Below, piece after piece: positions 22,279 to 59,574 of a stretch of 64,000 bases of DNA (position 1 is the first letter of the stretch; each line of letters begins with the position of its first letter). The DNA is from Leucoraja erinacea. Its lineage: Eukaryota. The notes under the pieces are model-generated. The model did no database searches. It worked only from the letters and a program-made list of their open reading frames with translations, and was not told the origin of the DNA. Both the position numbers and the translations under genes were made by a program. The DNA lies in assembly GCF_028641065.1 (NCBI RefSeq), contig NC_073416.1:6262001-6326000 (forward strand). The letters run 5' to 3'.

Positions 22279-23475
22279 TCAGTGAGGAATTGCCGTTATT
22301 CTCATACTCTGTGACGCAATTGGATATGTAACCATTGGAGTGGTGGCATGGCTTATGGTGATTCCTGGCAGTGCTTGTGCAATTGACACTGCCACTGGTG
22401 CAACAGAAACAGCCACCGGGGCCATGGATACTGGAGGTGCCATTCCCTGGGCGATGGTCTGGGCCAGTGCAGCAGGGAGGGAAGCAATTTCCGGGTTAAG
22501 ATGTTGTGCTGTTGGTGCAGCATTGCTAGGCGGTGCAGCAGAAGCAGTTGCCACTAGATCTTGCTGGATGACTGGTCGTGGTTGAAGTGCATGGCTACTC
22601 AATGTGGTGTGAGTCTGTGCTATACCATGGTTGTAATTGGTCAGCGTAGCCACAGCTGGTGCTGCCAGTATTTGCTCTGTGGCTGTGGGAGTGGAAGTCA
22701 GTGTCACCACCTTGGTTTGGTTGCGGAAATGTGCATTTTGCTCCAAGAGCACCTCATTAGTTGCCATCAAATTCGAGATCTGCTTTTTCAGTTCCTCAAC
22801 TCGCTTTCGGAGCATCAGATTCTCCTCTTCTAGAAATCGATAGTCCACAGGACGCGAGTTTGAGATGCTAAAATCATAACTTTCAAATCGTAAGCCATCC
22901 ACTCTTCTCCTCTTTAGAATATGGTCATAGTCAATATAGCGATCAGTCTCATAGAGGTCATCAAATGGGTCGTATCGTCGCACGACAGGAGAGAGCACTT
23001 GATCTCGTGCCAATCTCTCCAAAGTTCTATTTTCATACTCGTATTCATCACGTTTTAAGTGCCGAAATTTACATTTAGATCCTCGTTGACAGTCCCCTTT
23101 CAGGTAATCTCGGCAGATTGGAACCTCGCCTTTTTTAAAAGAAAGGTCAGAAGGTGAAAGGCCAAGACCCATGGCCACCGTAAGGCGTAGACGTTGGGGA
23201 AGCTCTCCTGATTTTTTGTAATGTTCCTCATCTTCCTTTGTCCCATGAATAAACTTGCAGTTGATACGAGTGCACTCCTTGTTCTGATAATCATGGCAAA
23301 AGACAAACTCATTTTTTTTAACACCCAAGTCGGACACCTCGTTAATGTCGGGGTGGTAGAACTTGCAGCGCTTGCCACGTTTGCAGACATTGCGCAGGAA
23401 GTCACGGCAAATATCATCTGAGCTGTGGCCAGCCTCGTCATTACCTCTGTTAAATAAATTATCTTTATCCGGCAT
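22279..23475 (-). CDS. ZC3H10: Zinc finger CCCH domain-containing protein 10 (398 aa, single coding exon)
   Basis: MPDKDN...CRDFLRNVCKRGKRCKFYH, CHDYQNKECTRINCKFIH, CRDYLKGDCQRGSKCKFRH, KRRR basic motif, coiled coil LEEENLMLRKRVEELKKQISNL, C-terminus VTYPIASQSMRITAIPH. True ATG at 23475 (the track starts at an upstream GTG); acceptor-like AGs near 23508 and 23523. Confidence 0.96.
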   Translation of the reverse strand: MPDKDNLFNRGNDEAGHSSDDICRDFLRNVCKRGKRCKFYHPDINEVSDLGVKKNEFVFCHDYQNKECTRINCKFIHGTKEDEEHYKKSGELPQRLRLTVAMGLGLSPSDLSFKKGEVPICRDYLKGDCQRGSKCKFRHLKRDEYEYENRTLERLARDQVLSPVVRRYDPFDDLYETDRYIDYDHILKRRRVDGLRFESYDFSISNSRPVDYRFLEEENLMLRKRVEELKKQISNLMATNEVLLEQNAHFRNQTKVVTLTSTPTATEQILAAPAVATLTNYNHGIAQTHTTLSSHALQPRPVIQQDLVATASAAPPSNAAPTAQHLNPEIASLPAALAQTIAQGMAPPVSMAPVAVSVAPVAVSIAQALPGITISHATTPMVTYPIASQSMRITAIPH

Positions 23476-30958: not shown

Positions 30959-31123
30959 CTTGGCTGGAATGCTTAATTTCTCACAATGGGATGATGTATT
31001 TCAAGTTAACGTTGTTCAATTGAATATCCTCAAGATATTTTTTTCAAAGTAAACGCCTGAGCATATTGTACTGGAATACACATCGATAACAGATGCCTGC
31101 AGCTCCCAACAGCGTCTTCTGCC
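30940..31123. promoter_or_regulatory. Putative bidirectional promoter between ZC3H10 and its paralogue
   Basis: Short spacer between two divergently oriented homologous exon-like blocks, in a locally CpG-retaining region (~30550-31900). Confidence 0.5.
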
Positions 31124-31177
31124 GTCGCTCTTGCCTCGGAGGACCAGAATGGAAGCTCGTCGTGTTTGGAGGACCAA
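31098..31177 (+). other. Putative non-coding first exon of the ZC3H10-like paralogue
   Basis: gtcgctcttgcctcggaggaccagaatggaagctcgtcgtgtttggaggaccaa|gtgagg; inverted homologue of 30891-30939. Confidence 0.55.
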
Positions 31178-33765
31178 GTGAGGAGGGAGAGAGGGGAGAG
31201 GGGGGGGGGGGAGGCTAAATAGTGTAAGTGAATGCGTTGTCCTTTCTCCTTTTGTTATTGATCGAGTTTATTCCAATGTCGGTAAACTGTTTCTATCAAT
31301 ATATATATCTTTGAGAAATAGAACAATGTTTAGTTTCCATCTGTGCGCTGGAATATATCGGTCCGTGTGAATCACTTGAGGCCTAGGAGCGCAGTTGAAG
31401 CCTCGCGCCAAGTTCGAGAACTTTCCGTCGCAACCCCACCAAAACTGTCAACATCCAGGTTTCCTCATGGCGGTAGCCTAAGAACAAGGATTGTTTAAGG
31501 AAGAGAAGTCACGTCTAGTGGTTAGGTTAAACCCTATGGCCGTCTTGGAAAAAATGGAATAGTGAAATCCGGACACAGAATGAAAGTCCAATGAATGAAC
31601 CATTACAAAATGTCCAAGATGAGTGTAGTTTACCCATCACGGGATTCCCACAGAATTTATAAATCCGTATCAAGATATGTCAGTTTTTAAACCGTTTGCT
31701 CCAGGCGCCGGCTTCTTTTTGATATCATGGACCGATGGTGCTGCCCATCTTCAACCGAGTGGTTGTGCAGCATTTGGAGCAGTTGGGAATGTCGCTGAGT
31801 TTGGGGCAAAAGAAGATCACCGCTGTTCAGTCAGGTGCTAAATGCGTTGTTAAAATGAAAGTGGAGATTTTGCCGCCTGCCATGTTGTAATTCAGCAGTG
31901 TTTGGCGAGTGAAGTTGAACCCTTCCCATTCCATCATGTTGTGCAGTCTGAAGAAGGGTTTCGGCCCGAAACGTTGCCTATTTCCTTCGTTCCATAGATG
32001 CTGCTGCACCCGCTGAATTTCTCCAGCACTTTTGTGTACCTTCGTGCAGTACTTTCACCGGTTGTGTTTAACCACTTAATCAATGGGACTCAAACTATGT
32101 TCTGTACATGTGATTGAACAATAAATGTTTAACCAGTTGACTTTTTAAAAAGAACATTGGCTACTGGATTTAAAAAAAACAATTTCCCAATGATCGCCAC
32201 TTTGACATTTACCGTCTTCCTCCTTAGGTCACTGCATCTTCTATCTCTCAAGAGGAATAATCAGCAAGGTTCACTTGGCCACTTGAAGGTATGAGGGATG
32301 GAAAATGATCAGATTTTCTTTTCTCTTTGCTATTCTTTGAGGCAATAACAGATTTGTATTTTGTTACCATTTCCATTTAGCGATTAACATTGGCATTTCA
32401 CGATGTGAACACTTTTATTCTTCCTCCCTCTTTGTCCTGCTTGGTTTGGCTCCTTAATGCTCCTAAATGTGATGAATTGTGAGAGGTATAGCCTTTCACA
32501 TAGGAGTTACCCAAGCGATCATGTTAAACTAGGTGCACATATTGATTGCTACAGAGGCGCACAGCCAGGGTTAATCCTGCCTTTGCCCGGTGCCCATATG
32601 TGAGACCGCCTTTTGCCTGAGCAGATGAGATATTATACATTGATGGTCAGTACCCCATTATGCATTGCTTGGTGCGACACAGGAACCCACTAAAGTCTGA
32701 ATATCTCTGCGACACTTGCTGTAGGTGAAGGTAGTGCGCTGAGAAGATGCAAATTTGCTCATCTCTGTTTTCTCTGACCTCAAAACTAACTGGACTTGCT
32801 GCTTGGGGTTGAGAGGGAAAAATAGATCAGCTATGATCGAATGGCAGAATGGCCTAATTCTGCTCGTATGTCTATGGTCTTATGCTGCTCTTTGCTTCTT
32901 CCATTGCCCTTTTGAACAGTTGACCTCTTGAGATCATGACTGTTTGTGGCTATTTCCAAATTGCTGGTGCCCACCATCATCATATTGTATTTGCAATTAT
33001 CCTTGTTGTGGCGATATGGACATCAGCTGGTTGTGACCCCATGGACAATTTGTCATACAAAAGTGTTGTTGAAAATATTGCTATCATCCATCTCACAAAG
33101 ATAATTGCTCTGTTGCAGATGTAGTTAGTTTAGTAACAAATGTTTGTGGATGAACTTGGACTATTCCGGGCCCTTTGAGTACCCTTGTCCTGCCAGAACA
33201 TGCCAAGAATACATCTGTATAAACGTAGCTTTTGTGCTTTTGATCGGGCTGTATTGCTACACTATCGTAAAAACAAGTAACGGGCAAGTACAGTAGTACA
33301 ACATACTGTGCCATCTGTATTTATAAGGTGAGAAAATGATCCTCCCTTGCCTGCTGTGAGTTCAGAATCACAAATTGGATTAGAAACTAGTTGGGATTAG
33401 TGACCCAAATACTGAAAATTTAAAACTCGCAAAAGCACAACACAAAATAAAATTTCACCATCCAATATGTCAATGTTATTTTGGGGGGAAAAAAAGCTAA
33501 GTATACTGTTCTTGGAAGGTTGAGTGATACTTTAAATAGTTTGTCAGATATTTATTATGTTCTGTCCATCTTTGAGAAAATAGACCAATAATTTATATAT
33601 TTTATTTCAGTCAATTCAGATTTCATGCTTTATCATTCAGACAGTAACAGACCTCTTAGAAGGATGTAGAGTCGTGTATTCCTCTCAGATATGGTGTTAT
33701 CGGACTCATCCTCCTGAATACAAATAGAACTAGTGCAAGATAATCAAAGAGGAAAGATTAGGTAT

Positions 33766-34048
33766 GTGTAGGAAAGAACTGCAGATGCTGGTTTAAATCG
33801 TAGGGTAGACACAAAATGCTGGAGTAAATCAGCAGGACAGGCAGCATCTCTGGAGAGAACGAATGGGTGACGTTTCGGGTCGAGACCCTTCTTCAGGAAA
33901 GAATAGGTCTTATTGGAGACCAATTAACAGCCTGAGATATCTGAGATGAGCAGTCTGAAGAAGTGTCTCGACCTGAAACGTCACCCATTCCTTCTCTCCA
34001 GAGATGCTGCCTGTCCCGCTGAGTCACTCCAGCTTTTTGTGTCTATCT
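33766..34048. mobile_element. Penelope-derived inverted pair with a ~55-bp spacer
   Basis: Two opposed copies of the gtaggaaagaactgcagatgctgg...cccttcttcag unit. Confidence 0.75.
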
Positions 34049-34247
34049 GAGATATGCAAAGTTCCATAAGAATAACTTGTAGCTGTTCAAGGAAAACTGG
34101 TGTTATATGGGCATTGACATTGAGATAGAAAAATGTGGTATTGGAAACATTGAACATAAAGAAGTAGAGGACGTATTAAAAAGGTCTGGCAAAAGTGGAT
34201 AAATTGGTTGATCAGGATAAAATGTATTTCAAGCCCTTTTATTAGGT

Positions 34248-35278
34248 ATGTTACAAAACCTACCTGAATCGTGGCTGAGAATCTGCCCCACCCCGTGTGC
34301 GCGATTTTGGCGCTGTTTAGAGGGGGCGGGTTTAAAACGCGATTTTTACTAGGCTGTTCCAATCGAAGATGTTCAGCCTAGTAAATCATTAACGAAAAAT
34401 CGCTGAAAGACCCCGTCGCAAAAGGTATTATTAGTTTTTATGGCCTTGTATAATAGTTATAGTAGTTTTAAAATCACTCTCTCAACCCGCGACCTCTCGC
34501 AGCCCCAGGGTTTTATAAAGCAAACAATTAAAGGTATGTACCTTATTTTTACATTAAAAGGGGCTTCTTAAGAACCCTGTATATAAAGTTTTCTATAGCG
34601 AGTAGTTCATTTTGGGCTCTTTATATCCCGCAGTATTTTTCTGGGCATTTGAGGGCACAAATCCAGCGCAATGTGAACGTTCTAAACCAGCGCGTTCACA
34701 GGATCCCAGTAGAAAGCTGAATTTAAAATGGACTTTAATTTACAGCAATTGAACACTAAATTCCTTCCATTTGGCCTATAAATTGATGTAAATGAGATTT
34801 TAAAATCATGTTTTATTGTGAATTATTTGTGAATATTATTTGGACACTTAGGCTATTTAAAAGTGTTAATCATTTATTAAGAAATGGATAGATGTTTAGA
34901 TCTAGTAATTGAAGTTTGAAATTAGCTACAATTGGGTAACTAACTAATTATATGCTTTAATTTCAGGTCATCCAAGTAAGATTATTTTATATTTGTTTCA
35001 GAATGGTTCAATCTATGATAACTGAACATTTCATTCAGTTCTCTTAATTTTTAAGACGGTTATGGGCTTTTGACTGTCCACGATCACAGCTTTTTTGTTA
35101 TGTCCATAGTAAATCAATAGGGAACAAGATGCTAATTTCCGAGTATGAAAATGGCCATAACTTTTTTATTACTTGAGATATGAAAGTGAATTAGGTGTCA
35201 AATTAAACTTATTTTTATGCTTTGTCTGATGGGATAAATTGCAGACTTGATTTTTTAAATCTCAAAATTTTGTAACAT
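34248..35278. mobile_element. Probable non-autonomous DNA transposon (~1 kb)
   Basis: 11-bp terminal inverted repeats ATGTTACAAAA / TTTTGTAACAT; CpG-rich left part unlike the flanks; no ORF. Confidence 0.5.
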
Positions 35279-35356
35279 TGATATTAAAAACATTTTTTTT
35301 TAAATTAAAAAATGCAGCAGCCGACATAAATCAGGCTCTGACTATAATTTTCTAAT

Positions 35357-35572
35357 GAAGATAGACACAAAATGCTGGAGTAACTCAGCGGGACAGGCAA
35401 CATCTCTAGAGAAGAAATGGGTGATGTTTCAAGTCGAGACCCACTGAAGAAGGGTCTCGACCCGAAACGTCACCCATTCCTTCTCTCCAGAGATGCTGCC
35501 TGTCCTGCTGAGTTACTCCAGCATTTTGTGTCTATATTCGGTTTAAACCAGCATCTGCAGTTCCTTCCTACA
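35357..35572. mobile_element. Penelope-derived palindromic repeat
   Basis: Inverted arms; contains CTGAAGAAGGGTCTCGACCCGAAACGTC at 35444-35471. Confidence 0.8.
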
Positions 35573-36554
35573 CTATAATTTTCCAGTGCCTTGAGGACTG
35601 GAAGATTGTTACTGTGGTATGATTTTTTTTAAAGAGTAAAAGGCATATACTGACATCCACGGGTCAGTCGGCTTAAATGTCAGGTGAAGTTATTGTAAAT
35701 TTGCATGTCTGCATTTAGAGAGGAAATTTGCATATGTCTGCACCAAGTTAACCGCAGACACTTTGCATGGAAGACATATGACTTGCGAACTTAGTTGCTT
35801 TTCTTGAGGAGATTGTTAAGAGCATTTGATGCACTACAAATGGATTTTGGAGTGGTGTTTGATAAAGTCTCACATAACAAGTCGAGCAGGAAACTATATG
35901 CTGACACGATCCAAAGAAAAGAGGCAATTGAAGTATTAATCTTATAAGAGACCTAGAAAGAGCGAGGGTAAACACAAAAAAAGAATGTGACTGGAGAATT
36001 TCCATTGGAGACCAATAACTTGAGGCATAGATTTAAGTTAATTGGTGAAAGGATAGAAGGAAATTAAGAAAAAAATCATTTAATCAGTGGTGATCTGAGC
36101 TCATTGTCTGAAAGACACCATCAGCACAGGAGAAGGTAATTCAGTTATTTGAGCCTGCTCCACCACTCATGACTGATACAACTTTTATCAAGTCCTCTCA
36201 ACCACCCCCCCCCATCTGTTTCCTTACAACCCTTGTTTCACGTATTGATTAAAAATCCATCTCTCATCTTTCAACAATTCGACCTCAATGGCTTTTTTAG
36301 GTGAAAAGTTTCCAATCTTTTGGGAGAAGAGATTCTTCCTCATCTCTATCTTAAATGGGCAGTCCTTTATCTGAGACTTCTGGTCCTAGACTCTGCCATG
36401 AGGGGGCTTCACAGCATTTAGTCAATCAAGCTGCCCAAGAACTTTGGATATTTCAATGAGATTGTCTCTTGTTCTTCAAAACTCCAATGACTTGACCCAA
36501 CCTGTTCCTGCACATCAATCCCTTTGAATGCGATAGGATCAAAGAAGGTGAAAT

Positions 36555-37390
36555 AAGATACAAGATACATTTAATTGTCATTTGGACCCCTTGAGGTCCA
36601 AACGAAATGCCGTTTCTGCAGCCATACATTACAAACAAATAGACCCAAGACACAACATAATTTACATAAACATCCATCACATCGCTGTGATGGAAGGCCA
36701 AATAAACTTATCTCTCCACTGCACTCTCCCCCCCCCCCCGATGTCAGAGTCAAAGTCAAAGCCCCCGGCTGGCGATGGCAATTGTCCCGCGGCCATTAAA
36801 GCCACGCCGGGTGGTGTGAGGTCGCACACCGGGTCTTGGTGTTAGAGCCCCCGGCGTGCGCTCGCAGAGTCCCGCGGCCATTCCAAGCCGCGCGGGGCGG
36901 TGATGTTAGGCCCCGCTCCAGGAGCTCTTCGACCCCGCAACTCGGGCGGGAGAAGTCGCCGTTGCGAGAGCCCTGAAAAGCGGTCTCCCTCCAGGGACCC
37001 GCGGGCTCCCGGTGCCGCCGTCCGCAGACCTGCAGTTGAAGCCTCCGACTCTCCGGTCAGGCCGCAGCAGCAGCAGCAGCAGCGCGCTCCTCCACTGCTC
37101 CACCCGCTCCGGACTCGGCCAGCTCCGCGACGGTGAGGTGAGTCGTCGGCACCAGAGTCCCCGGTCTCTTCCTGTTGGAGGCCGCTCCTCATTGCAGCCC
37201 CAACGATAACGTAGACTGGACGAGAAAAGGTCGGGTCTCCCGTGTAGGGAGAGATTTAAAAGTTTCCCCCTCCCTCCCACCCCACCCCCCCACACACACC
37301 CACACGAGCCCCAACAACAAATAACAAAAATTACGTAAAAACATAGACAGAAAATAATAAAACGCGGACGGGCTGCAGAGGCCGCTGCTG
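36555..37390 (-). mobile_element. GC/CpG-rich non-autonomous retroelement with a LINE-type tail
   Basis: Abrupt GC-rich block in AT-rich intron; the minus strand ends atgacaattaaatgtatcttgtatctt, resembling the tail of the LINE at 51473. Confidence 0.6.
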
Positions 37391-38459
37391 ACTCTTTTTC
37401 TTTGATTTTGAGGTCCTGAGATAGAATTACAGTAAGAAGCGGCGCAATCAGTTTTGAATTCTCCAAGTGAGGTTGCAGGAGTCTAGGAGGAACAAGAAAA
37501 AATTTCACAAGACTACTGAATATATCAATGTAAATTTTGCTTTTATTAAAATAAATAGAAAATGAGTGGTTAAGAGAATTGACAAACAGCAAACTTTTTC
37601 TCGCATCATATCTGGAAACCTGCAAGGAGAATCAACTCCTTTTACAATGGGATCTGCACTCAAAAGTTGTTTGATACACATGATGTTAATAAAGAGTTAA
37701 GAGCTAATAAGGAGGGAAGAGGGGCGCAATGTTTTACGAATAGCCTTGCTATTTGTGCGGGGTGGTAGGCATAGTTTAAGATCGGGTAATATGGAACATT
37801 TAAAAAAAATTAAGAATAGGGAGCTATCAATGATAAAGGGGGGAGTAACACGAGTCAGACATTGCAATGGAAAAGGAACGTGGATTACAGCATGAGAACC
37901 CGTGGCCTTTAGTCCTGAAAACGATGCAGCTTGCAATGAAGTTGACAATATATGTTGAAGAGAGCTTTTTTTTTTTGACTGTTTTATAAATCATCATTCA
38001 AGATTGCTTCTTTAAAGTTATCTTGACATTGTTTCTATTAAAGTGTATATTTTGCTTAAATTGGCTTTTACAAATAAAAATGTTAACCTTTTTCAGGGTC
38101 TTCACTTCAATAATACTCCTTTGTGCGTATATATTTCAGCAGTATGTCTTGATTTGTCTCTAACATGCTAATTTGTACATTTAAAGATATTCGTTTACTG
38201 TTCAAAACATACCTGCCATTTTTAATTTGTTAAAGTCGATATTTACTTTAGCATCTCTGGCATTGTACTTGCACACAGATGGCAGATCAAAATGTGTGTT
38301 TGAAGTAGAATTTAAGCGACCAATTCTGAAAGGATTATTTTTTTAAATTCTGCTGCATAGCAAAAAATTTCCATAATAGTTACGGTAATTACATCTGCTG
38401 TGGAATTCTATGTGAAAACAAAGATCAGCTTTTCAAGTGGCTATGCTACCGTTTTAACG

Positions 38460-38680
38460 TGATAGACATGAAAAGCTGTGGTAACTCAGCGCGTCAGACA
38501 GCATCTCTGGAGAAAAGGAATAGGTGACATTTTGGGTCGAGACCCTTCTTCAGAAGATCCATAGGGTCTCGTCCCGAAACGTCACCTATTCCTTTTCTCC
38601 AGAGATTCTGTCTGAGCCACTAAGTTACTCCAGGTTTTTGCGTCTACGATTTAAACCAGCATCTGCAGTTCCTTCCTACG
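38460..38680. mobile_element. Penelope-derived palindromic repeat
   Basis: Same unit as 5763 and 35357, inverted pair. Confidence 0.75.
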
Positions 38681-39200
38681 CTTTTAATGAGGTCGGCTGA
38701 CTCTGAGTTTAATCAGCACTACTTCTTCATAATCTTCTTTAACATGTTGCTTCAGGAATTTGTTTCTAGTACTGATTCTAACGTCCTGCATTTACAAATT
38801 ACTATAAAAATCACTTGCAGTATGAATTTAATTTTTTCCATGCGTGTACTGTCTGGAGTGCAATAATCGAGAAGACATGTTTACTTTGTTATGCCGGTGT
38901 CTTTTTCAGGAAAACTCAAAGCATTGGTATTTGCGATATTAAAAGCAAAACTGCCGACTTAATACTGCTTATCTCTTTTTAAATATTAATATAAACCTTG
39001 ATGTTCCACTGGTAACTTGCTGTAAGTATTTTCTATTGAATTAACGATGTAGGAACAGCTACAATATTTTGTGAGAAAGGGATTAAGCTAAATTACTTTG
39101 TAGATGAATCTCTTATTTATTGTAAAAGACCTGGCTTCTTTTTCTTTTACAGTTGTTTATTGAGAGCCTTGGCTGAGTAGCGCAGAAATATTCTGGAAGC

Positions 39201-40739
39201 ATGTCCGAGAACGACACTGATAATTTAGTCAACAGCGGCAAAAATGAGCCTGGCAAGAGCAAACGGAATGTTTGCCGAGACTTTCTGCGCAATGTCTGCA
39301 CTCGTGGTAAGAATTGCAGGTACTTCCACCCTGACAATGTTGAGGCCTCCGACCTTGCCGACATAAGGAACGACACTGATAATTTAGTCATCATTACCAA
39401 TGACGAAGCTGGCAAAAACAAATCGTACATTTGCCGAGACTTTCTGCGCAATACCTGCAGCCGTGGTAAGAATTGCAGGTATTTCCATCCAGATGATATT
39501 GAGCCCTCTGTCCTCGCTGATGTAAGAAACGACATTGATAATTTAGTCAACTTTGGCAATGATGAGGCTGACAAAAGCAATCTGAATATATGCCGAGACT
39601 TTCAGCGGAATCTCTGCAATCGTGGTAAGAATTGCAGATATTTTCACCCAGATGATATTGAGGTCTCCAACCATGCTGACCTAAGTGATGACGCTGATAA
39701 TTTCGTGAATAATAGCAAATTTGATGCGAGCAAGAGCAAAAGGAATGTTTGTCGTGACTTTCTGCGCAATGTCTGCACCCGTGGTAAGAATTGCAGGTAT
39801 TTTCACCCGGATAATGTTGAATCCTATGATGTAGGTGATATGCGGCATGAGTCTATCTTTTGTCAGTACTTTCAAAATAGCAAATGTACCCGTGAGAACT
39901 GCACGTTCATTCACGGGACAAAGGGTGAAGAGAATTATTACAATAAAACAGGAAAGCTTCCTTCCCACTTACAAAAGACAGTGGCTGTGACATTTGGGCT
40001 CTCGCCCTCCAATTTGCCTCTTATTACAAAGGAAGTCCCATTCTGCCGTGACTTTCTAAAAGGCAAATGTCGAAGAGGATCCAAGTGTAAATTCCAGCAC
40101 TTGAAACGCGATGACAATGATAAGACCAGTATAGAAAATGTGTCACAAAATAAAGAAGCTTCTCCTGAGATCTGTAGATATGACCGTTTGGATGACCTGT
40201 ATGAGACGGAGAAATGTGATGTTGACCAAACTCCAAAAAGGAAAAGAACGGAGGGTCTACGGTTTGAAGTATTTGATTACAGCATCCCCAATCTGCGTCC
40301 AGTTGAAATGAATTTTTTGGAGGAGGAAAACCATATGCTCAGAATGCGCAATGAGGAGCTTAAGAAGCAGGTGTCAAGCCTAAAGATTACAAATGAGGTA
40401 CTTCTGGAGCAAAATGCTGATTTACGCAAGCAAGTGAAACTGGGGATCCTGACCACAGGGACTGACCCAACACAATCACCAGCTATGCACGCTGTTACCA
40501 ATTATAATCATAGTATAGTGGAGACTCACACCACCCTGAGCAACCAGGTCGTGAGATCACAGTCTATTTCTCATCAAGAATTGATAGCGCAAGCTAGAGC
40601 TCATAATGCTTTATGTTCTGAAGCTACATCCCAAAGTCCACCCTGTCTTAGTGCTGCTCTCTCGACACCTTATGCCCAAGGGGTGGCTTCACCAGTTTCA
40701 ATCGCACAATTGCCATCTCAGTTGCACCATTGGCAGTGA
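39201..40739 (+). CDS. ZC3H10-like paralogue with six CCCH fingers (512 aa)
   Basis: Four C-x7-C-x5-C-x3-H fingers, then CQYFQNSKCTRENCTFIH, CRDFLKGKCRRGSKCKFQH, PKRKR and coiled coil LEEENHMLRMRNEELKKQVSSL; acceptor ttttcttttacag| ending at 39152. Confidence 0.9.
   Translation: MSENDTDNLVNSGKNEPGKSKRNVCRDFLRNVCTRGKNCRYFHPDNVEASDLADIRNDTDNLVIITNDEAGKNKSYICRDFLRNTCSRGKNCRYFHPDDIEPSVLADVRNDIDNLVNFGNDEADKSNLNICRDFQRNLCNRGKNCRYFHPDDIEVSNHADLSDDADNFVNNSKFDASKSKRNVCRDFLRNVCTRGKNCRYFHPDNVESYDVGDMRHESIFCQYFQNSKCTRENCTFIHGTKGEENYYNKTGKLPSHLQKTVAVTFGLSPSNLPLITKEVPFCRDFLKGKCRRGSKCKFQHLKRDDNDKTSIENVSQNKEASPEICRYDRLDDLYETEKCDVDQTPKRKRTEGLRFEVFDYSIPNLRPVEMNFLEEENHMLRMRNEELKKQVSSLKITNEVLLEQNADLRKQVKLGILTTGTDPTQSPAMHAVTNYNHSIVETHTTLSNQVVRSQSISHQELIAQARAHNALCSEATSQSPPCLSAALSTPYAQGVASPVSIAQLPSQLHHWQ
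39210..39845 (+). repeat. Coding tandem repeat, 4 x 159 bp (53 aa), one CCCH finger per unit
   Basis: Units start at 39210, 39369, 39528 and 39687 (NDTDNLV / NDTDNLV / NDIDNLV / DDADNFV). Confidence 0.95.
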
Positions 40740-41639
40740 CGCAATCGCTCCCAGAAATTGCCATGAATTATACCATCACTCAAATGGTCAGTTATCCAAA
40801 TGCATCACAAAATATGAAGTTCCTCTGTCGTGCAGAGGATAGTTGAGATTAGAAGGCATTTAATTTGAAGCTTTACAAGAGATTTCTATTTCTTATTGGT
40901 TCCCAGGGCAATTGCAAAAAGTGAGTCAAGTATGATTGTTAAAGAGGGAGTCTCACCATCACCAACCCTTTTGCAAAGTCAAAAATGAAATGATGAGAAT
41001 TTGTGTTTTCTGTCTCGTTTGTTGCTGTTTAACTCGTCTGGAGAACAGGTTGCGCAGAATTGTACCTCAGCAGTAGTAGCAAATGGAAGTTGAAACGTGC
41101 TTCAATTTGCAGCCATATATGTCGCAAATTTCTTTTGGTGGGGGGGAAGAAAGATTGAATTGAACTCAAGTTTTTGAATTCTTTGAAACCTTTTTTTGAT
41201 TTGCTCATGTTGTAAGCTCTGGTGCAAATGAAAGCAAAGTCTTTGACAGCGCATTGCAATGCCCACACCAACTCAAGCTTTCCAACTGCAGCAGCAGTGG
41301 GATAAGGTTTTGTCTGCAAATATGGCTGCTTTCTTTTGCTCATGTAAAATTGGTTTCAATCAACATCAAAACATCAACTTTCTAAAAACACTTGTACATG
41401 CGCTTAAAGAGCATTGTGCCTTTACAACTTTTTTAATCGCTTTTTTTTAAGACACAAAATTATTATAAAACTACAAAAAATTTACCCTCATTCACTTCTT
41501 CATACCACCCAACCAAAAATATAATCCTCTGCTGCTTTGATTGTGGTCAGAGCAGAAATTAAAGAATGCAGAAAATGACGCCATGGCTCCCTTTTCTCCC
41601 TCTTGTTGGAGAACTGTCTTGCAGCATAAATGCAATTAG

Positions 41640-48203: not shown

Positions 48204-50956
48204 GTAGGAAAGAATTGCAGATGCTGGTTTAAATCAAAGGTAGACACAAAATGCTGGAGTAACTCAGCGGGACAGTCAGCATCTCGGGAGAAAAGGAATG
48301 GGTGACGTTTCGGGTCGAGACCTTCCGACTAATGTCGGAGTGCGCGGGACAGAGATAGAATGTCGTCAGAGACAGTAAGACTGGTGGGAGAACTGGGAAG
48401 GGGAGATTTTAATAAATCAAACCTCAAGGAGGTCATGCCGAACTTCTACCAACACATCACGTGTGCCACCAGGGGGGAGAGAACTTTGGACCACTGCTAC
48501 ACACCGTTCAGGAAAGGCTACAAGGCCGTTTCACTCCCTCCCCTAGGAAAATCTGACCACGCTGCTATTTTCCTGTTGCCGGTGTATAAACAGAGGATAG
48601 TTCGGGGAGCGGTAGAGACGAGGGACGTAAAGCGGTGGTCCGACCAGTCAGAGGCCATGCTGCAGGATGCACTGAGTGATGTCGACTGGAATATGTTCGA
48701 AGCAAGTTCCAGTGACGTCAGTGAGTTCGCGGTAGCAGTCATGGACTTCATCGCAACAATAACCGCCAACATCGTCCCCACGGTAAGGGTAAGCACCTTT
48801 CCGAATCAAAAACCCTGGGTAGACAGGTCTGTTCGTGTGGCCTTGAATGCTCGCACCGCTGCCTACAACTTGGGCCTGGCATCAGGAAACATGGACGTCT
48901 ACAAGGCAGAGTCCTACCGACTGCGAAGGGCGGTGAAGGACGCAAAGAGAAGGTACAGGGACAAGATGGAGTTACAGATGGAGCAGCAGGACACCAGAAG
49001 CCTGTGGCAGGGGCTACGGATTGTAACCAACTACCGAAGCACCCCTCCCTCACCCGCATGTGCCGGCACCTCCCTAGCTGACGACCTGAACTCCTTCTAC
49101 GCTCGTTTCGAGAGGGGCAACACCACTCCAGGTCTGCCGACTATCGACAATACCGCCAGGGGGCTGGCTACCGAAGCTGAAGGGAGGAGTGTGCACACAT
49201 TCTCGCTGTCCGAGCACGACGTGAGGAGGGCACTGACACGGGTGAACACGAGAAAAGCTGCAGGCCCCGATGGCATCTCGGGGCGAGTACTCAAGTCCTG
49301 TGCTACGCAGCTAGCTCCAGTGCTCACTACATTATTCAACCTCTCCCTGGACAAGTCCGTGGTCCCTGCCTGCTTCAAAAAATCCATCATTGTACCGGTA
49401 CCAAAAAATGCCTCCCCAGCCTGTCTGAATGACTACCGTCCGGTGGCCCTTACCTCGGTAGTCATGAAATGCTTTGAGAGGCTGGTGAAGAATCACATCT
49501 GCGCCTTCCTCCCTCGGAACATGGACCCGTTGCAGTTCGCATACCGTCCGAACAGGTCCACGGACGATGCGGTCTCCCAGGTCTTGCACACCGCTCTCTC
49601 CCATCTGGACAGCCAGAAGGGGGGCTACGTGAGGATGCTGTTCATAGACTACAGTTCAGCCTTCAACACGATAGTCCCCACCAGACTGGCCGGGAAGCTA
49701 ATGGAATTGGGGCTCAACACCTCCCTGTGTGCCTGGGTCCTGGACTTTCTCACTGCCAGGCCCCAGGTAGTCAAGATGGGAGGGAATACATCGAAGTCCC
49801 TCACCCTGAGCACAGGATTGCCCCAGGGTTGCGTTCTCAGCCCCCTATTGTACTCCCTGTACACACATGACTGTGTGGCTAGGTTCAGCTCCAATTCAAT
49901 AATTAAGTTTGTTGATGACACTGTGGTGGTGGGCCTGATCTCAGACAACGATGAGAAGGCCTAACCGGGAGGAGGTGGCTGATCTAGCACTCTGGTGCCA
50001 GGATAACAGCCTCCTCTTGAACATCAAAAAAACAAAGGAGCTGATCATGGACTTTAGGAGGGCACATCATCCGAGGACGTACACTCCATTGAGTATAAAT
50101 GGGGATCCTGTGGATAGGGTGAACTGTTTTAAATATCTGGGAGTCCACATCTCTGAGGATATGACATGGGCATCACACGCCTCAGCACTCGTGAGTAAGG
50201 CAAGGCAGCGCCTTTACCACCTCAGGCAATTGAGGAAATTCAGAGTGTCTCCGAGGATCCTCCAGTGCTTCTATGCAGCGGTGGTGGAAAGCATCTTGTC
50301 CGGTAACATTACCATCTGGTTTGGGAATTGCTCTGCCAAGGACAAGAAGGCTCTGCAGAGAGTAGTGCGTTCGGCCGAACGCACTATGGGAACTTCACTC
50401 ACCCCCCCCTGCAGGAACTATACAACAGGAGGTGCAACTCCAGAGCAAACAAAATCATGAGAGACCCCTTCCACCCCTGCAACGGTCAGGCAAACGCCTC
50501 CGTTGCCATGCGGTGAGAACGGAGAGGTTGAGAAGGAGTTTCTTCCCAGAGGCAATTCGGACTGTAAACGCCTATCTCACCAGGGACTAACTCTACAGAA
50601 CGTTTTTCCTTCTATTATTTATTATGTAAAAGAATATGTGTGTTATGATTGTGTTTATAATTTGTTTGGTTGTTTTGTTGTTTGTCTTTTGCACAAAAAT
50701 CCGCGAGCATTGCCACTTTCATTTCACTGCACATCTCGTATGTGTATGTGACAAATAAACTTGACTTGACTTGACTTGAATGGAGAGAGGGAGGGAAAGC
50801 AAGGGCTATTTGAATTTAGAGAAGTCCATGTTCATACCACTGGGTACAAACAAGCTACCCAAGCGAAATATGAGGTGCTGTTCCTCCAATTTACGCTGGG
50901 CCTTCACTCTGACAATGGAGGAGGCCCAGTACAGAAAGGTCAGATTGGGAATGGGA
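48204..50956 (-). mobile_element. Penelope-like element 3' end (48204-48400 plus 50777-50956), split by a LINE insertion
   Basis: The minus strand of 50805-50955 encodes SHSQSDLSVLGLLHCQSE/QRKLEEQHLIFRLGSL/PSGMNMDFSKFK* (with frameshifts), typical of the GIY-YIG C-terminus; continues into the dispersed terminal repeat. Confidence 0.75.
48401..50776 (+). mobile_element. 5'-truncated Rex1/Babar-type non-LTR retrotransposon (end of APE endonuclease plus RT), frameshifted
   Basis: GDFN...LDHCY...SDH, KAAGPDG, NDYRPVALTSVVMKCFERLV, FIDYSSAFNT, PQGCVLSPLLYSLYT, KFVDD; frame break at ~49962 and at the poly-C near 50402; AATAAA(CTTGA)n tail. Confidence 0.93.
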
Positions 50957-54650: not shown

Positions 54651-54729
54651 TTAAGAGCGACAATAGCTCCTATTTTGATTGTACCCCTGATACTGTAACC
54701 CCCTTTTTTCGAATGCATTTTATTAAGAG

Positions 54730-56768
54730 AAATGGAGGACATTTAAAGGGGAAATTTTAAGAGTACATAATCTTTGGAAAGAGCCCTGGTTTTCAAGGGA
54801 AATTGGACATCTTGTTCGGAAAAAGAGGGAGATCTACAATAATTATAGGCAGCATGGAGTAAATGAGGTGCTTGAGTATAAAGAATGTAAAAATAATCTT
54901 AAGAAAGAAATTAGAAAAGCTAAAAGAAGATATGAGGTTGCTTTGGCAAGTAAGGTGAAAGTAAATCCAAAGGGTTTCTACAGCTATATTAATAGCAAAA
55001 GGATAACGAGGGATAAAATTGGTCCATTAGAGAGACAGTGGACAGCTATCTGCAGAGCCAAAAGAGATGGGGGAGATATTGAACAATTTATTTTCTTCGG
55101 TATTCACCAAGGAGAATGATATTGAATTATGTGAGGTAAGGGAAACAAGTAGAGTAGCTATGGAAACTATGAGAATCAAAGAAAAAGAAGTACTGACATT
55201 TTTGAAAAATATAAAAGTGGATAAGTCTCCAGATCCTGACAGGATATTCCCTAGGACATTGAGGGAAGTTAGTGTAGAAATTGCAGGGGCTATGACAGAA
55301 ATATTTCAAATGTCATTAGAAACGGGAATAGTGCCGGAGGATTGGCGTACTGCACATGTGTTCCAATGTTTAAAAAGGGTTCTAAGAGTAAACCTAGCAA
55401 TTATAGACCTGTTAGTTTGACTTCAGTGGTGGGCAAATTAATGAAAAGGATACTTAGAGATAATATATATAAGCATCTGGATAAACGGGGTCTGATTAGG
55501 AACAGTCAACATGGATTTGTGCCTGGAAGGTCATGTTTGACTAATCTTCTTGAATTTTTTGAAGAGGTTACTAGGGAAATTGATGAGGGTAAAGCAGTGG
55601 ATGTTGTCTATATGGACTTTAGTAAGGCCTTTGACAAGATTCCTCATGGAAGGTTGGTTAAGAAGGTTCAATTGTTGGGTATTAATGCAGGAATAGCAAG
55701 ATGGATTCAACAGTGGCTGAATGGGAGATGCCAGAGAGTAATGGTGGATGGCTGTTTGTCAGGTTGGAGGCCGATGACTACCTCGGGGATCTGTGTTGGG
55801 TCCACTGTTGTTTGTCATGTACATCAATGATCAGGATGATGGTATGGTAAATTGGATTAGTAAGTATGCAGATGATACTAAGATAGGTGGTCTTGTGGAT
55901 AATGAAGTAGATTTCCAAAGTCTACAGAGAGATTTAGGCCATTTGGAAGAATGGGCTGAAAGATGGCAGATGGAGTTTAATGTTGATAAGTGTGAGGTGC
56001 TACATCTTGGCAGGACAAATCAAAATAGGACGTACATGGTAAATGGTAGCGAATTGAGGAATGCAGTTGAACAGAGGGATCTTGGAATAACTGTGCACAG
56101 TTCCCTGAAGGTGGAATCTCATGTAGATAGGGTGGTAAAGAAAGCTTTTGGTGTGCTAGCCTTTATAAATCAGAGCATTGAGTATAGAAGTTGGGATGTA
56201 ATGTTAAAATTGTACAAGGCATTGGTGAGACCAATTCTGGAGTATGGTGTACAATTTTGGTCGCCCAATTATAGGAAGGATGTCAACAAAATAGTGCAGA
56301 GAGATTTACTAGAATGTTGCCTGGGTTTCTGCAACTAAGTTACAGAGAAAGGTTGAATAAGTTAGGTCTTTATTCTTTGGAGCGCAGAAGGTTAAGGGGG
56401 GACTTGATAGAGGTCTTTAAAATGATGTGAGGGATAGACAGAGTTGACATGGATAAGCTTTTCCCATTGAGAGTAGGGAAGATTCAAACAAGAGGACATG
56501 ACTTGAGAATTAAGGGACAGAAGTTTAGGGGTAACATGAGGGGGAACTTCTTTACTCGGAGAGTGGTAGCTGTGTGGAAAGAGATCCAGTGGAAGTGGTG
56601 GAGGCAGGTTCGATTTTATCATTTAAAAATAAATTGGATAGGTAAATGGATGGGAAGGGAATGGAGGGTTATGGTCTGAGTGCAGGTAGATGGGACTAGG
56701 GGAAAATAAGTGTTCGGCACGGACTTGTAGGGCCGAGATGGCCTGTTTTCGTGCTGTAATTGTTATAT
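54730..56768 (+). mobile_element. 5'-truncated CR1-type LINE RT region, multiply frameshifted
   Basis: KSPDPDRIFPR, NYRPVSLTSVVGKLM, QHGFVPGRSCLTNL, YMDFSKAFD, LGPLLF, KYADD. Confidence 0.93.
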
Positions 56769-57113
56769 GGAGAGACCACTTCCAATGTGGTCTCCATGTA
56801 ATGGGCAAATGGATCTTCGCCAGGAGGGAATACCTGTTTGGTGATGGAGGGAAGGAAGTATGTGATACTTGGATCATCGGAAAATGAACGTAAAGGCTTC
56901 ATTAACCTGTTGTTGTAATATTTAGAATGGGAACATTTTATTGGTTTCTATGAATTGCAGGTGATCTCCTCTGGCGTTGCTCATTTAAAGAAAAATTGCA
57001 ACTGAGTCTGCTTCTTTCCCTGTCTTATCCTCTCCACCTGCCACTCTATTGCCTCCCTTTTGTGTGTGTGCCACATCTTGTATTGTTTTTGCCTGTTAAC
57101 ATACAATCTTTTG

Positions 57114-57758
57114 GCTTTTGGTGTGCTGGCCTTTATAAATCAGAGCATTGAGTATAGAAGTTGGGATGTAATGTTAAAATTGTACAAGGCATTGGTGAGG
57201 CCAATTCTGGAGTATGGTGTGCAATTTTGGTCGCCTAATTATAGGAAGGATGTCAACAAAATAGAGAGAGTACAGAGGAGATTTACTAGAATGTTGCCTG
57301 GGTTTCAGCAACTAAGTTACAGAGAAAGGTTGAACAAGTTAGGCTTTATTCTTTGGAGCGCAGAAGGTTAAGGGGGGGACTTGATAGAGGTTTTTAAAAT
57401 GATGAGAGGGATAGACAGAGTTGACGTGGAAAAGCTTTTCCCACTGAGAGTAGGGAAGATTCAAACAAGGGGACATGACTTGAGAATTAAGGGACTGAAG
57501 TTTAGGGGTAACATGAGGGGGAACTTCTTTACTCAGAGAGTGGTAGCTGTGTGGAATGAGCTTCCAGTGAAGGTGGTGGAGGCAGGTTCGTTTTTATCAT
57601 TTAAAAATAAATTGGATAGTTACATGGACGGGAAGGGAATGGAGGGTTATGGTCTGAGCGCAGGTATATGGGACTAGGGGAGATTATGTGTTCGGCACGG
57701 ACTAGAAGGGTCGAGATGGCCTGTTTCCGTGCTGTAATTGTTATATGGTTATATGGTT
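57114..57758 (+). mobile_element. Second CR1 3' fragment of the same subfamily
   Basis: Near-identical to 56144-56768; (atatggtt)n tail. Confidence 0.9.
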
Positions 57759-58601
57759 AATCCTTTTGTTGCTTGGGATTACAAAGTGTAATTATTTGTG
57801 GTAATGGTAAAAATACCTTGCACCTTTATTACATAATTCCCTCGTCTTCAATTGTCGTTATGACCTTTGCTGTGTAACTCTGAATTCAACTTCTCGTCCC
57901 AGGTTTGAAGTGGAAGTAAATGTTTGAAATATACATGTTTCTGTAGCCTTTGCTCTCTATTCTGGCAGTGTATTTTGGCCATTTACTATGGTTCCACTAT
58001 TTTATCTCTGGTAACTTTGGTGACTAAGGTAACTAAATTGAAAGACGTTGGGGTTAGCGTTTGCGAGCGAATCGATCACTCGTGCCAAAATTGAGAATAG
58101 ATTTCTACACTACAAATTTAAAATCTGCAATCTTTTATGCTAGTGTAGAAAAATCACAGTGGGAAAATAGACAAGCCAAATTCAATTAATACCAAAATAA
58201 TTTCCTACCAACTGCATCTGTTTGTGAGTCTTCACGTAAAATTAAAACATTTGTGGCGCAATTATATTCTTTAAAGGCTTATTAGACCAATTTTCTGGCA
58301 TATTTAACCACATTTAAGTATCTATTATTAATGCTGTTTTAGTTCAAAATATCTGTAACATTAAGTAAAACTATTCTTTTCAGAAATTCACTCTTTGCTT
58401 GCCTAATCAGATTTGATAACAAAGGAAGTAGATTGAAGTGTAAAAACTGAAGCAGTCATTTTTCAGTTTGAAGAAGAGTTCTGACCCTGAACATCACCTG
58501 TCCATTTCCCCCTCAAACAATGCTGCCTGACCTGCTGAGTTCCTCCAGCAGGTAGATTATTGTTTTCTCTCCAGCCAACTTTATTTTTGGCTGCATCTAT
58601 A

Positions 58602-59320
58602 GGGTGATTTCACGAAAGGTCACTGGATCATAGATCCTCCCCCACGTGACCGCAAAATTTAACTGGGGTACAAACGTCACTTCCAGTACATGTTATTGAT
58701 GCTGAAAACGCGTACTTTCAAACCAGTTAAAAACCGCGAAAACTGTTAGTTTTTGAGCTGTAAATAACTGTGCCAGTCGGGGTGACTGCGAGGCACAGCT
58801 ATCTTACTTTAGAGTCCAGAAGATAAAGAAAAACGAAGGTAAAGACAAGAGAGCGCTGAAGGGAAAATAACAGCGGAAGTTTTTTGGCCGTGCAGATATA
58901 AAGATTGAAAATATCGGGAATTATCGCGTTTGCTCACTGCATTTCATCAAAACTAAGGCATTATTGATGTTTTGATGAAATGCAGTGAGCAAACGCGATA
59001 AAATCCCGATATTTTCGATCTTTATATCTGCACGGCCAACAACATCCGCTGTTATTTTCCCTTCAGCGCTCTCTTGTCTTTACCTTTGTTTTTCTTTATC
59101 TTCTGGACTCTAAAGTAAGATAGCTGTGCCTCGCGGTCACCCCGACTGGCACAGTTATTTACAGCTCAAAAACGGGCTGTTTTCGCAGTTTTTAACGGGT
59201 TTGAAAGTGCGCGTTTCTAGCATCAATAACATGTACCGGAAGTGACGTTTGTACCCCAGTTGGATTTTGCGGTCACGTGGGTGAGGATCTATGATCCAGT
59301 GACCTTTCGTGAAATCACCC
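58602..59320. mobile_element. Foldback / MITE-like palindromic element
   Basis: ~352-bp inverted arms (58602-58953, 58969-59320), 15-nt loop, termini GGGTGATTTCACGAAAGG / CCTTTCGTGAAATCACCC, flanked by TATA on both sides. Confidence 0.9.
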
Positions 59321-59574
59321 TATATCTTGCTGAATAAAAAAAGTTGATCAGCTAGCACAAATTGATTTTTCTCCCAGGGGACGATTAAAATTTGTAAAAT
59401 ATGAAACACGGGGATAGCAAAAATGCCAATGTCTGGTTGCAATCGCAGCATCTTGTGTGCTTATGGGACAAGGGTTTGCAGTGGTATATGGTTTTCAGAG
59501 ATTTTCTGTCATTTTACAAGAATGGTGATAAGGGAGGATCGGGGCTTAGAAACACTGGCTAATCCACCAATGTC

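Follow-up and report, generated by a model that had tools for sequence, protein, structure and literature searches.

In the bony vertebrates compared here, ZC3H10 is a three-finger regulator whose RNA and DNA roles are disputed; binding to GCAGCG-type RNA or to TTTC/TYCCNG DNA is the functional hallmark of the family. The mammalian protein is reported to select GCAGCG and AGUGCAG RNA (PMC11612968) and to bind RNA via fingers 1 and 2 (Treiber 2017, cited in PMC6911170), both of which are described as required for RNA binding in the mouse (PMC6911170). According to the same source, the mammalian protein binds DNA through its bZIP-like part (PMC6911170), and it is reported to repress interferon-stimulated genes via its NLS, fingers, coil, and R89 (PMC13375009). 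The CCCH fingers of MBNL proteins may each recognize a GC step (PMC4176163), and Phe202 of MBNL1 is described as stacking on cytosine (PMC9780971).

The window analyzed here, a stretch of 64,000 nucleotides from Leucoraja erinacea, carries two ZC3H10-type genes: a canonical three-finger gene and a six-finger paralogue whose product is 50% identical to it over 349 aa (Table 1). Tandem Repeats Finder detected in the paralogue a 159-nt period with 3.8 copies, 77% matches, and 0 indels (score 683). In frame, there are four units of 53 aa, each composed of a linker and a CX7CX5CX3H finger and closing in RGKNCRYFHPD, which is identical in 4/4 units. An earlier sequence-only reading had proposed that linker plus finger 1 was amplified to 4 x 53 aa with all Cys/His ligands intact and with diverged linkers and synonymous sites. 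The analysis bears this out, as all four fingers keep the C-x7-C-x5-C-x3-H pattern and the units share 69-80% DNA identity, with a dS of 0.44-1.15. Fingers 2 and 3, the PKRKR motif, and the coiled coil, which the same reading regarded as retained, are all present, but finger 2 is altered at several positions relative to canonical ZC3H10. Pfam recognized CCCH fingers in the 512-aa protein and weakly matched a bZIP-like domain.

Elsewhere in the window, a MIP/aquaporin-0 gene extends from 475 to about 10100 on the forward strand (exons near 475, 6657, 8088, and 9987), and a further aquaporin-like gene lies ~23 kb upstream of the window; human ZC3H10 and MIP are both presumably located at 12q13. 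LINE-type reverse transcriptase remnants occupy 48360-50460 and 54700-57750, and the window contains many short palindromic repeats together with an inverted repeat of 730 bases (58598-59324).

Table 1. Coordinates of the six-finger paralogue, its parts and its surroundings in the window.
Feature	Position	Strand	Remarks
Canonical three-finger ZC3H10, 398 aa	22279..23475	-	head-to-head with six-finger paralogue
CpG-rich, mostly non-repeat patch, candidate promoter	31001..32000		CpG o/e 0.77-0.93
Non-coding 5' exon	32228..32288	+	32259-32288 by contigs; start inferred from upstream AG
GT-AG intron, 6.9 kb	32289..39152	+	contig junctions; GT donor at 32289, AG acceptor ending 39152
Six-finger ZC3H10 paralogue	39201..40739	+	single coding exon, ORF of 512 aa
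Repeat unit 1, type A	39207..39365	+	finger 39273-39329
Repeat unit 2, type B	39366..39524	+	finger 39432-39488
Repeat unit 3, type B	39525..39683	+	finger 39591-39647; Gln replaces Leu, 1/71 units
Repeat unit 4, type A	39684..39842	+	finger 39750-39806; distance to finger 2 as in canonical ZC3H10
Finger 2 (C-x7-C-x4-C-x3-H)	39861..39914	+	differs from canonical ZC3H10; invariant among orthologues; R89-equivalent Arg kept
Finger 3	40044..40100	+	CX7CX5CX3H
PKRKR	40233..40247	+	position matches mammalian NLS region (inferred; PMC13375009)
Leucine zipper	40305..40445	+	d: six Leu; a: N-N-V-N-N-V
One-base frameshift relative to orthologues	40706..40711	+	contigs of five organisms (A, B, E, F, G) lack an indel at this site
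Relic of conserved C-terminal tail, out of frame	40712..40846	+	89% identity over 45 aa to Rhinoraja tail

By sequence comparison, the six-finger gene belongs to a cluster of four ZC3H10 genes that is conserved among elasmobranchs. Two further paralogues lie downstream, one of 229 aa without finger 2 (G000:C40:6334732-6335418) and one of 282 aa with three fingers (G000:C40:6358483-6359328), the latter having the zipper Asn and the finger-2 Tyr and Thr changes in common with the six-finger gene. Their orthologues, grouped in clusters that number 13 and 16 members, occur in sharks as well as rays, with 86-94% identity to Heptranchias, and in many species these are found on contigs equal in size to that of the six-finger gene. 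In some species, RefSeq applies "isoform X1/X2" labels to different paralogues (a 548-aa X1 and a 217-aa X2 in Chiloscyllium plagiosum; a 279-aa X1 in several species). These labels may reflect either shared 5' exons with alternative last exons or merely separate isoform sets.

Contigs of runs X10, X14, and X19, which come from three studies, match the locus up to 39151 and then carry loose ends of 28, 13, and 25 bases, respectively. The X10 end has a single exact placement at 32259-32286. Since this end maps upstream with the GT donor beyond it and the AG acceptor in place, we conclude that the 6.9-kb intron is removed by splicing, with the reservation that these runs were guessed to be RNA and that only 13-28 bases overhang the junction. 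Lack of expression had been named as an argument against the sequence-only reading; the spliced transcript in these three runs, taken as RNA, speaks for expression. Contigs of three unlabelled or DNA-like runs and of one possible source run read through the acceptor, and the ~6% of the raw run X24 (RNA) that was searched gave 0 reads. The CpG-rich patch upstream is a candidate promoter, possibly common to canonical ZC3H10, which runs in the opposite direction; a second non-repeat patch between the two genes (34001-34750) lies within the intron. The acceptor and the 5' UTR context are common to all four cluster genes, which indicates duplication at the DNA level. A processed retrocopy or pseudogene is ruled out by the shared splice acceptor, the spliced intron, and a dN/dS of 0.24.

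Orthologues with the same architecture occur in sharks and rays at 82-93% identity. Among the cluster members listed, 16/18 other named shark and ray species have four finger-1 copies, in agreement with the proposed conserved multi-finger array; Pristis has three, lacking unit 2, and Hemiscyllium is represented by two partial (split) models. A comparison of repeat numbers across batoids had been proposed earlier; the four-copy form is elasmobranch-wide and neither species- nor batoid-specific. Units at the same position are 85-93% identical between species, and units at different positions are 61-81% identical, alike within and between species. Because each unit is specific to its position, the array had become fixed by the time sharks and rays diverged; a preprint gives this split, jointly with the X that both groups share, an age of 265-349 million years (10.1101/2025.02.26.637739). 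The same position specificity rules out a recent or concerted repeat expansion.

No holocephalan orthologue was found among the matches listed (best 120 of 411; best 120 of 191; 2), the short-protein search missing even the 280-aa paralogue; P0177 is a further model of the single Callorhinchus gene. Likewise, bony-vertebrate and holocephalan proteins among the matches listed contained no such array, bar P0173, whose two finger-1 copies likely stem from a mis-joined gene model. The best 120 of 411 protein matches are named ZC3H10 or ZC3H10-like, or are unnamed or hypothetical. In the tree, the six-finger proteins form a separate clade (support 100) on the chondrichthyan side (SH-aLRT 95), with the gene at 22279-23475 as the canonical orthologue, and the three derived cluster genes form one clade (SH-aLRT 94). 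A tree test of the duplication against the holocephalan split gave an AU p of 0.32. That the six-finger gene is itself the canonical ZC3H10 orthologue is ruled out by its six fingers, its separate clade, and its tail being out of frame.

Several observations concern other members of the family. In carpet sharks, isoform X2 of canonical ZC3H10 (358 aa; P0139, P0142, P0145, P0147) has finger 3 only, canonical ZC3H10 is present twice on a single Rhinoraja contig (P0008/P0009), and salamanders seemingly have their own ZC3H10 duplicates (P0067, P0117, P0171, P0174). A dispersed, diverged 301-aa copy that lacks finger 2 and retains the tail (L022:5483-6385, contig C36) belongs to a cluster of three members. 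A 311-base fragment with 92% identity to canonical ZC3H10 and a broken finger 1 (L023:5113-5423, contig C31) is likely a recent pseudogene.

Nei-Gojobori dN/dS between units is 0.11 for the fingers and 0.42 for the linkers, calculated from pooled pairs that are not independent. Relative to run X19, we counted 18 non-synonymous and 21 synonymous changes, a ratio of 0.24 (binomial p 1e-5) that rests on 39/49 differences without transition correction and may be somewhat low. Both comparisons agree with the purifying selection proposed earlier. Identity to 16 orthologues reaches 95% in the finger-1 cores, 100% in finger 2, 99% in finger 3, and 92% in the zipper, and falls to 80% in the linkers and 76% in the stretch from NLS to zipper, the least conserved region. 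The tree stem leading to the six-finger clade measures 0.51 changes per site, compared with 0.02-0.05 for the crown branches, which suggests that rapid change came first and constraint afterwards. From these comparisons we infer a real, ancient, and functional architecture that is new within a known family.

The change from KRCKFYH to KNCRYFH had been read as a sign of altered specificity. As stated, this claim is unsupported: mammals have Arg-Tyr at these positions, and the contact residues of the MBNL type are preserved. Arg follows Cys3 in 140/140 bony-vertebrate finger-1 sequences and Tyr comes next in 10/140, namely in mammals, so the pair is not new; the Lys-Phe of the neighbouring canonical gene represents the chondrichthyan state. 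The derived changes in finger 1 are two lost basic residues: the Lys that followed Cys2 and the Arg that preceded Cys3. Three residues are kept in 79/79 finger-1 copies, drawn from 20 proteins of which two are near-duplicates of the window's: an Arg after Cys1, another Arg two past Cys2, and an aromatic residue two past Cys3, the last of which aligns with MBNL1 Phe202. In finger 2, His-Asp is replaced by Gln-Tyr and Lys by Thr relative to canonical ZC3H10, and these changes are identical in 16/16 orthologues; the basic residue after Cys3 is lost, and the Arg equivalent to R89 is retained. If specificity has changed, finger 2 would be the likelier site than finger 1. The array contains 34 Lys and Arg versus 37 Asp and Glu and is not net basic. 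Since fingers 1 and 2 are needed together in the mouse, lone finger-1 copies may bind weakly. In the full-length AlphaFold model, the array has a pLDDT below 35. With regard to a compact two-finger fold, a model reached pLDDT 61 and pTM 0.32; its best Foldseek match, to MBNL, was weak (E 0.02, rmsd 11.8), and the fold search gave no match at E 0.001.

In the reading that we prefer, to which we assign about an even chance, the gene encodes a spliced, long-conserved elasmobranch paralogue, likely a nuclear homodimer, which would act separately from ZC3H10 and bind RNA with multiple GC steps more avidly. The gene would have originated by DNA-level duplication and inversion, and a burst of change with three unit duplications (A-B-B-A) would have preceded the shark-ray split. 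Each finger-1 copy would read a GC step like the MBNL fingers, the 34-residue linkers would allow variable spacing, and the changed finger 2 would shift the motif preference. It is unlikely, by comparison, that the protein acts mainly as a DNA-binding transcription regulator, as mammalian ZC3H10 does at the promoters of UCP1 and interferon-stimulated genes, and that its additional fingers read repeated ssDNA or nascent RNA motifs. The NLS-like motif, the zipper, and the R89-equivalent Arg are indeed kept, and mammalian DNA functions are reported to need them (PMC6911170, PMC13375009). However, the UCP1 function in the mouse is described as dispensing with the fingers (PMC6911170), so this reading would leave their amplification unexplained, and the stretch from NLS to zipper is precisely the least conserved one.

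An Asp-Asn pair in the linker is present in 70/71 units and corresponds to the beginning of canonical ZC3H10. Together with the loss of basic residues in fingers 1 and 2, this would suit an array that serves as a scaffold, its units docking several copies of a partner via the linker motif and a finger surface that has become less basic. We regard such a role as quite improbable, because the linkers evolve faster than the fingers (dN/dS 0.42 vs 0.11; identity 80% vs 95%) and the stacking residues are kept.

The second a position of the zipper is Val in 13/13 canonical elasmobranch sequences and in 104/106 scored bony sequences (of 146; 40 were unmatched by the pattern), and Asn in 20/20 six-finger proteins and 15/15 sequences of the 279-aa paralogue. 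Asn-Val pairs are reported to be frequent in non-binders and to destabilize bZIP coiled coils strongly (PMC4335062). The earlier suggestion that the retained coiled coil allows heterodimers with ZC3H10, which the six-finger protein might thereby redirect or dampen, would be favored by the first five d and most e and g positions, which agree between the two zippers, and by the head-to-head genes, which are possibly co-expressed. Because a fixed Asn opposes Val at an inner a position, a destabilizing pair, such heterodimers appear disfavored, and we consider this reading very unlikely; the Asn-Val rule derives from bZIP factors, and a single mismatch need not abolish pairing. The homodimer prediction proposed as a check of the sequence-only reading gave a parallel, in-register zipper with Asn384 facing Asn384 that passed with a score of 0.55, compared with 0.01 for the best control; contacts agreed to at least 93% between runs, at a pLDDT of 82. 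The same mark was reached by 21/30 solved microbial pairs, 0/23 single chains, and 7/16 animal pairs, and a leucine zipper could pass it through likeness to solved zippers. Model and residue pattern thus favor self-pairing over a heterodimer with ZC3H10. Under the preferred RNA-binding reading, the zipper would prefer itself, and perhaps also the 279-aa paralogue, over canonical ZC3H10 as a partner, and a six-finger homodimer would present eight finger-1 copies.

Orthologues of the six-finger protein measure 545-557 aa and end in a tail kept in 17 other species, including an intact one in Rhinoraja, whereas the skate protein stops at 512 aa because one base is missing near 40706-40711. An assembly error as the source of the frameshift is ruled out, as the contigs of five organisms (A, B, E, F, and G) agree with the window, although run X1 possibly stems from the same source as the window DNA and is then not independent. 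Run X19 bears an extra 7-base deletion inside the tail relic, which, together with the agreement of five organisms, shows that the loss is real and shared. The C-terminal tail is gone in this skate lineage, and the remainder of the protein is still constrained. That the gene works in other elasmobranchs and the skate copy has been decaying since the frameshift is highly improbable: the missing tail, the rare Leu-to-Gln change in the third finger of the array, and the identity to Heptranchias of 86.5% here versus 89.1% for Rhinoraja would fit decay, but dN/dS is 0.24 between two frameshift-bearing organisms that both have the spliced transcript, the finger ligands are all unchanged, and two sister paralogues likewise end shortly past the zipper.

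The chromosomal context points to sex linkage. A preprint places Nramp2-like and igfbp5-like genes on the X of 13 species (10.1101/2025.02.26.637739), and in this genome 8/8 Nramp matches and 1/23 IGFBP matches fall on C40, the contig of the cluster. In Narcine, the orthologues are located on a contig of 103,180,129 bases, the size given in that preprint for the X-homologous chr12, a fused chromosome, and the zebra shark X is reported to share homology with a portion of human chromosome 12 (PMC12952989). The cluster is therefore likely X-linked. Dosage compensation of the elasmobranch X is described as incomplete (PMC12318234); the main text and one supplement of that study do not mention ZC3H10. 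A much bolder proposal, to which we give little credence, is a private X-linked elasmobranch subfamily of four ZC3H10 genes (3, 6, 2, and 3 fingers) with a split dimerization code, in which the six-finger dimer would read RNAs with recurring GC steps, for example CNG-type repeats or pri-miRNA clusters, and its dose on an incompletely compensated X of ~300 million years would help to drive sex-biased gonad regulation. A cluster with an altered zipper core on a likely X would provide candidates for dosage-based sex determination in elasmobranchs. The four-fold finger 1, frozen since before the shark-ray split, constitutes a natural test of the role of finger 1 and of the effect of avidity on target choice, with Pristis (three units) and these skates (without the tail) as natural deletion mutants.

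We found no study or description of the six-finger architecture in the literature, and no six-finger paralogue in supplements of PMC11406177 (2 files), PMC10620051 (1 file), and PMC8455134 (12/24 files); the supplements of preprint 10.1101/2025.02.26.637739 may list these genes on the X. As stated there, strict one-to-one orthologue screens can miss such duplicated genes (bioRxiv 2025.02.26.637739). Among known systems, the multi-CCCH array proteins P0222-P0235 have 7-17 fingers, many spaced 40-60 residues, which indicates that spaced finger arrays recur in nature; they differ in being ~25-45% identical in the fingers only, and 0/14 inspected have at least two ZC3H10-type finger-1 copies. The MBNL1/2 tandem CCCH fingers (PDB 5u6l, 3d2q, 3d2s) are the best sequence match with a solved structure (E 1e-8) and share the contact Arg and aromatic residue. 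However, MBNL proteins are described as carrying two compact pairs, CX7CX6CX3H plus CX7CX4CX3H (PMC4176163), whereas the paralogue has four single CX7CX5CX3H fingers on 34-residue linkers and a zipper; without two tandem finger pairs, it is not an MBNL protein. With vertebrate ZC3H10, it shares the spacing of fingers 1-3, the NLS-like motif, the zipper, a GLSP site matching mouse S126, and a single coding exon. The finger of unit 4, finger 2, and finger 3 form CX7CX5CX3H, CX7CX4CX3H, and CX7CX5CX3H in ZC3H10 spacing, followed by the basic NLS and then the zipper. It differs from ZC3H10 in the four-fold linker plus finger 1, the changed finger 2, the Asn at the second a and the Leu at the sixth d position of the zipper, an Asn in finger 1 where 137/140 bony sequences have Arg, and the tail lost in the skate lineage. 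The RefSeq/UniRef entries named "zinc finger CCCH domain-containing protein 10-like" (XP_067832662.1, XP_078287714.1) are orthologues at 82-93% identity with the same four units, which differ in having 545-557 aa with the tail and are automatic predictions. The gene is already predicted by RefSeq as "ZC3H10-like", and what is new is the array architecture within a known family.
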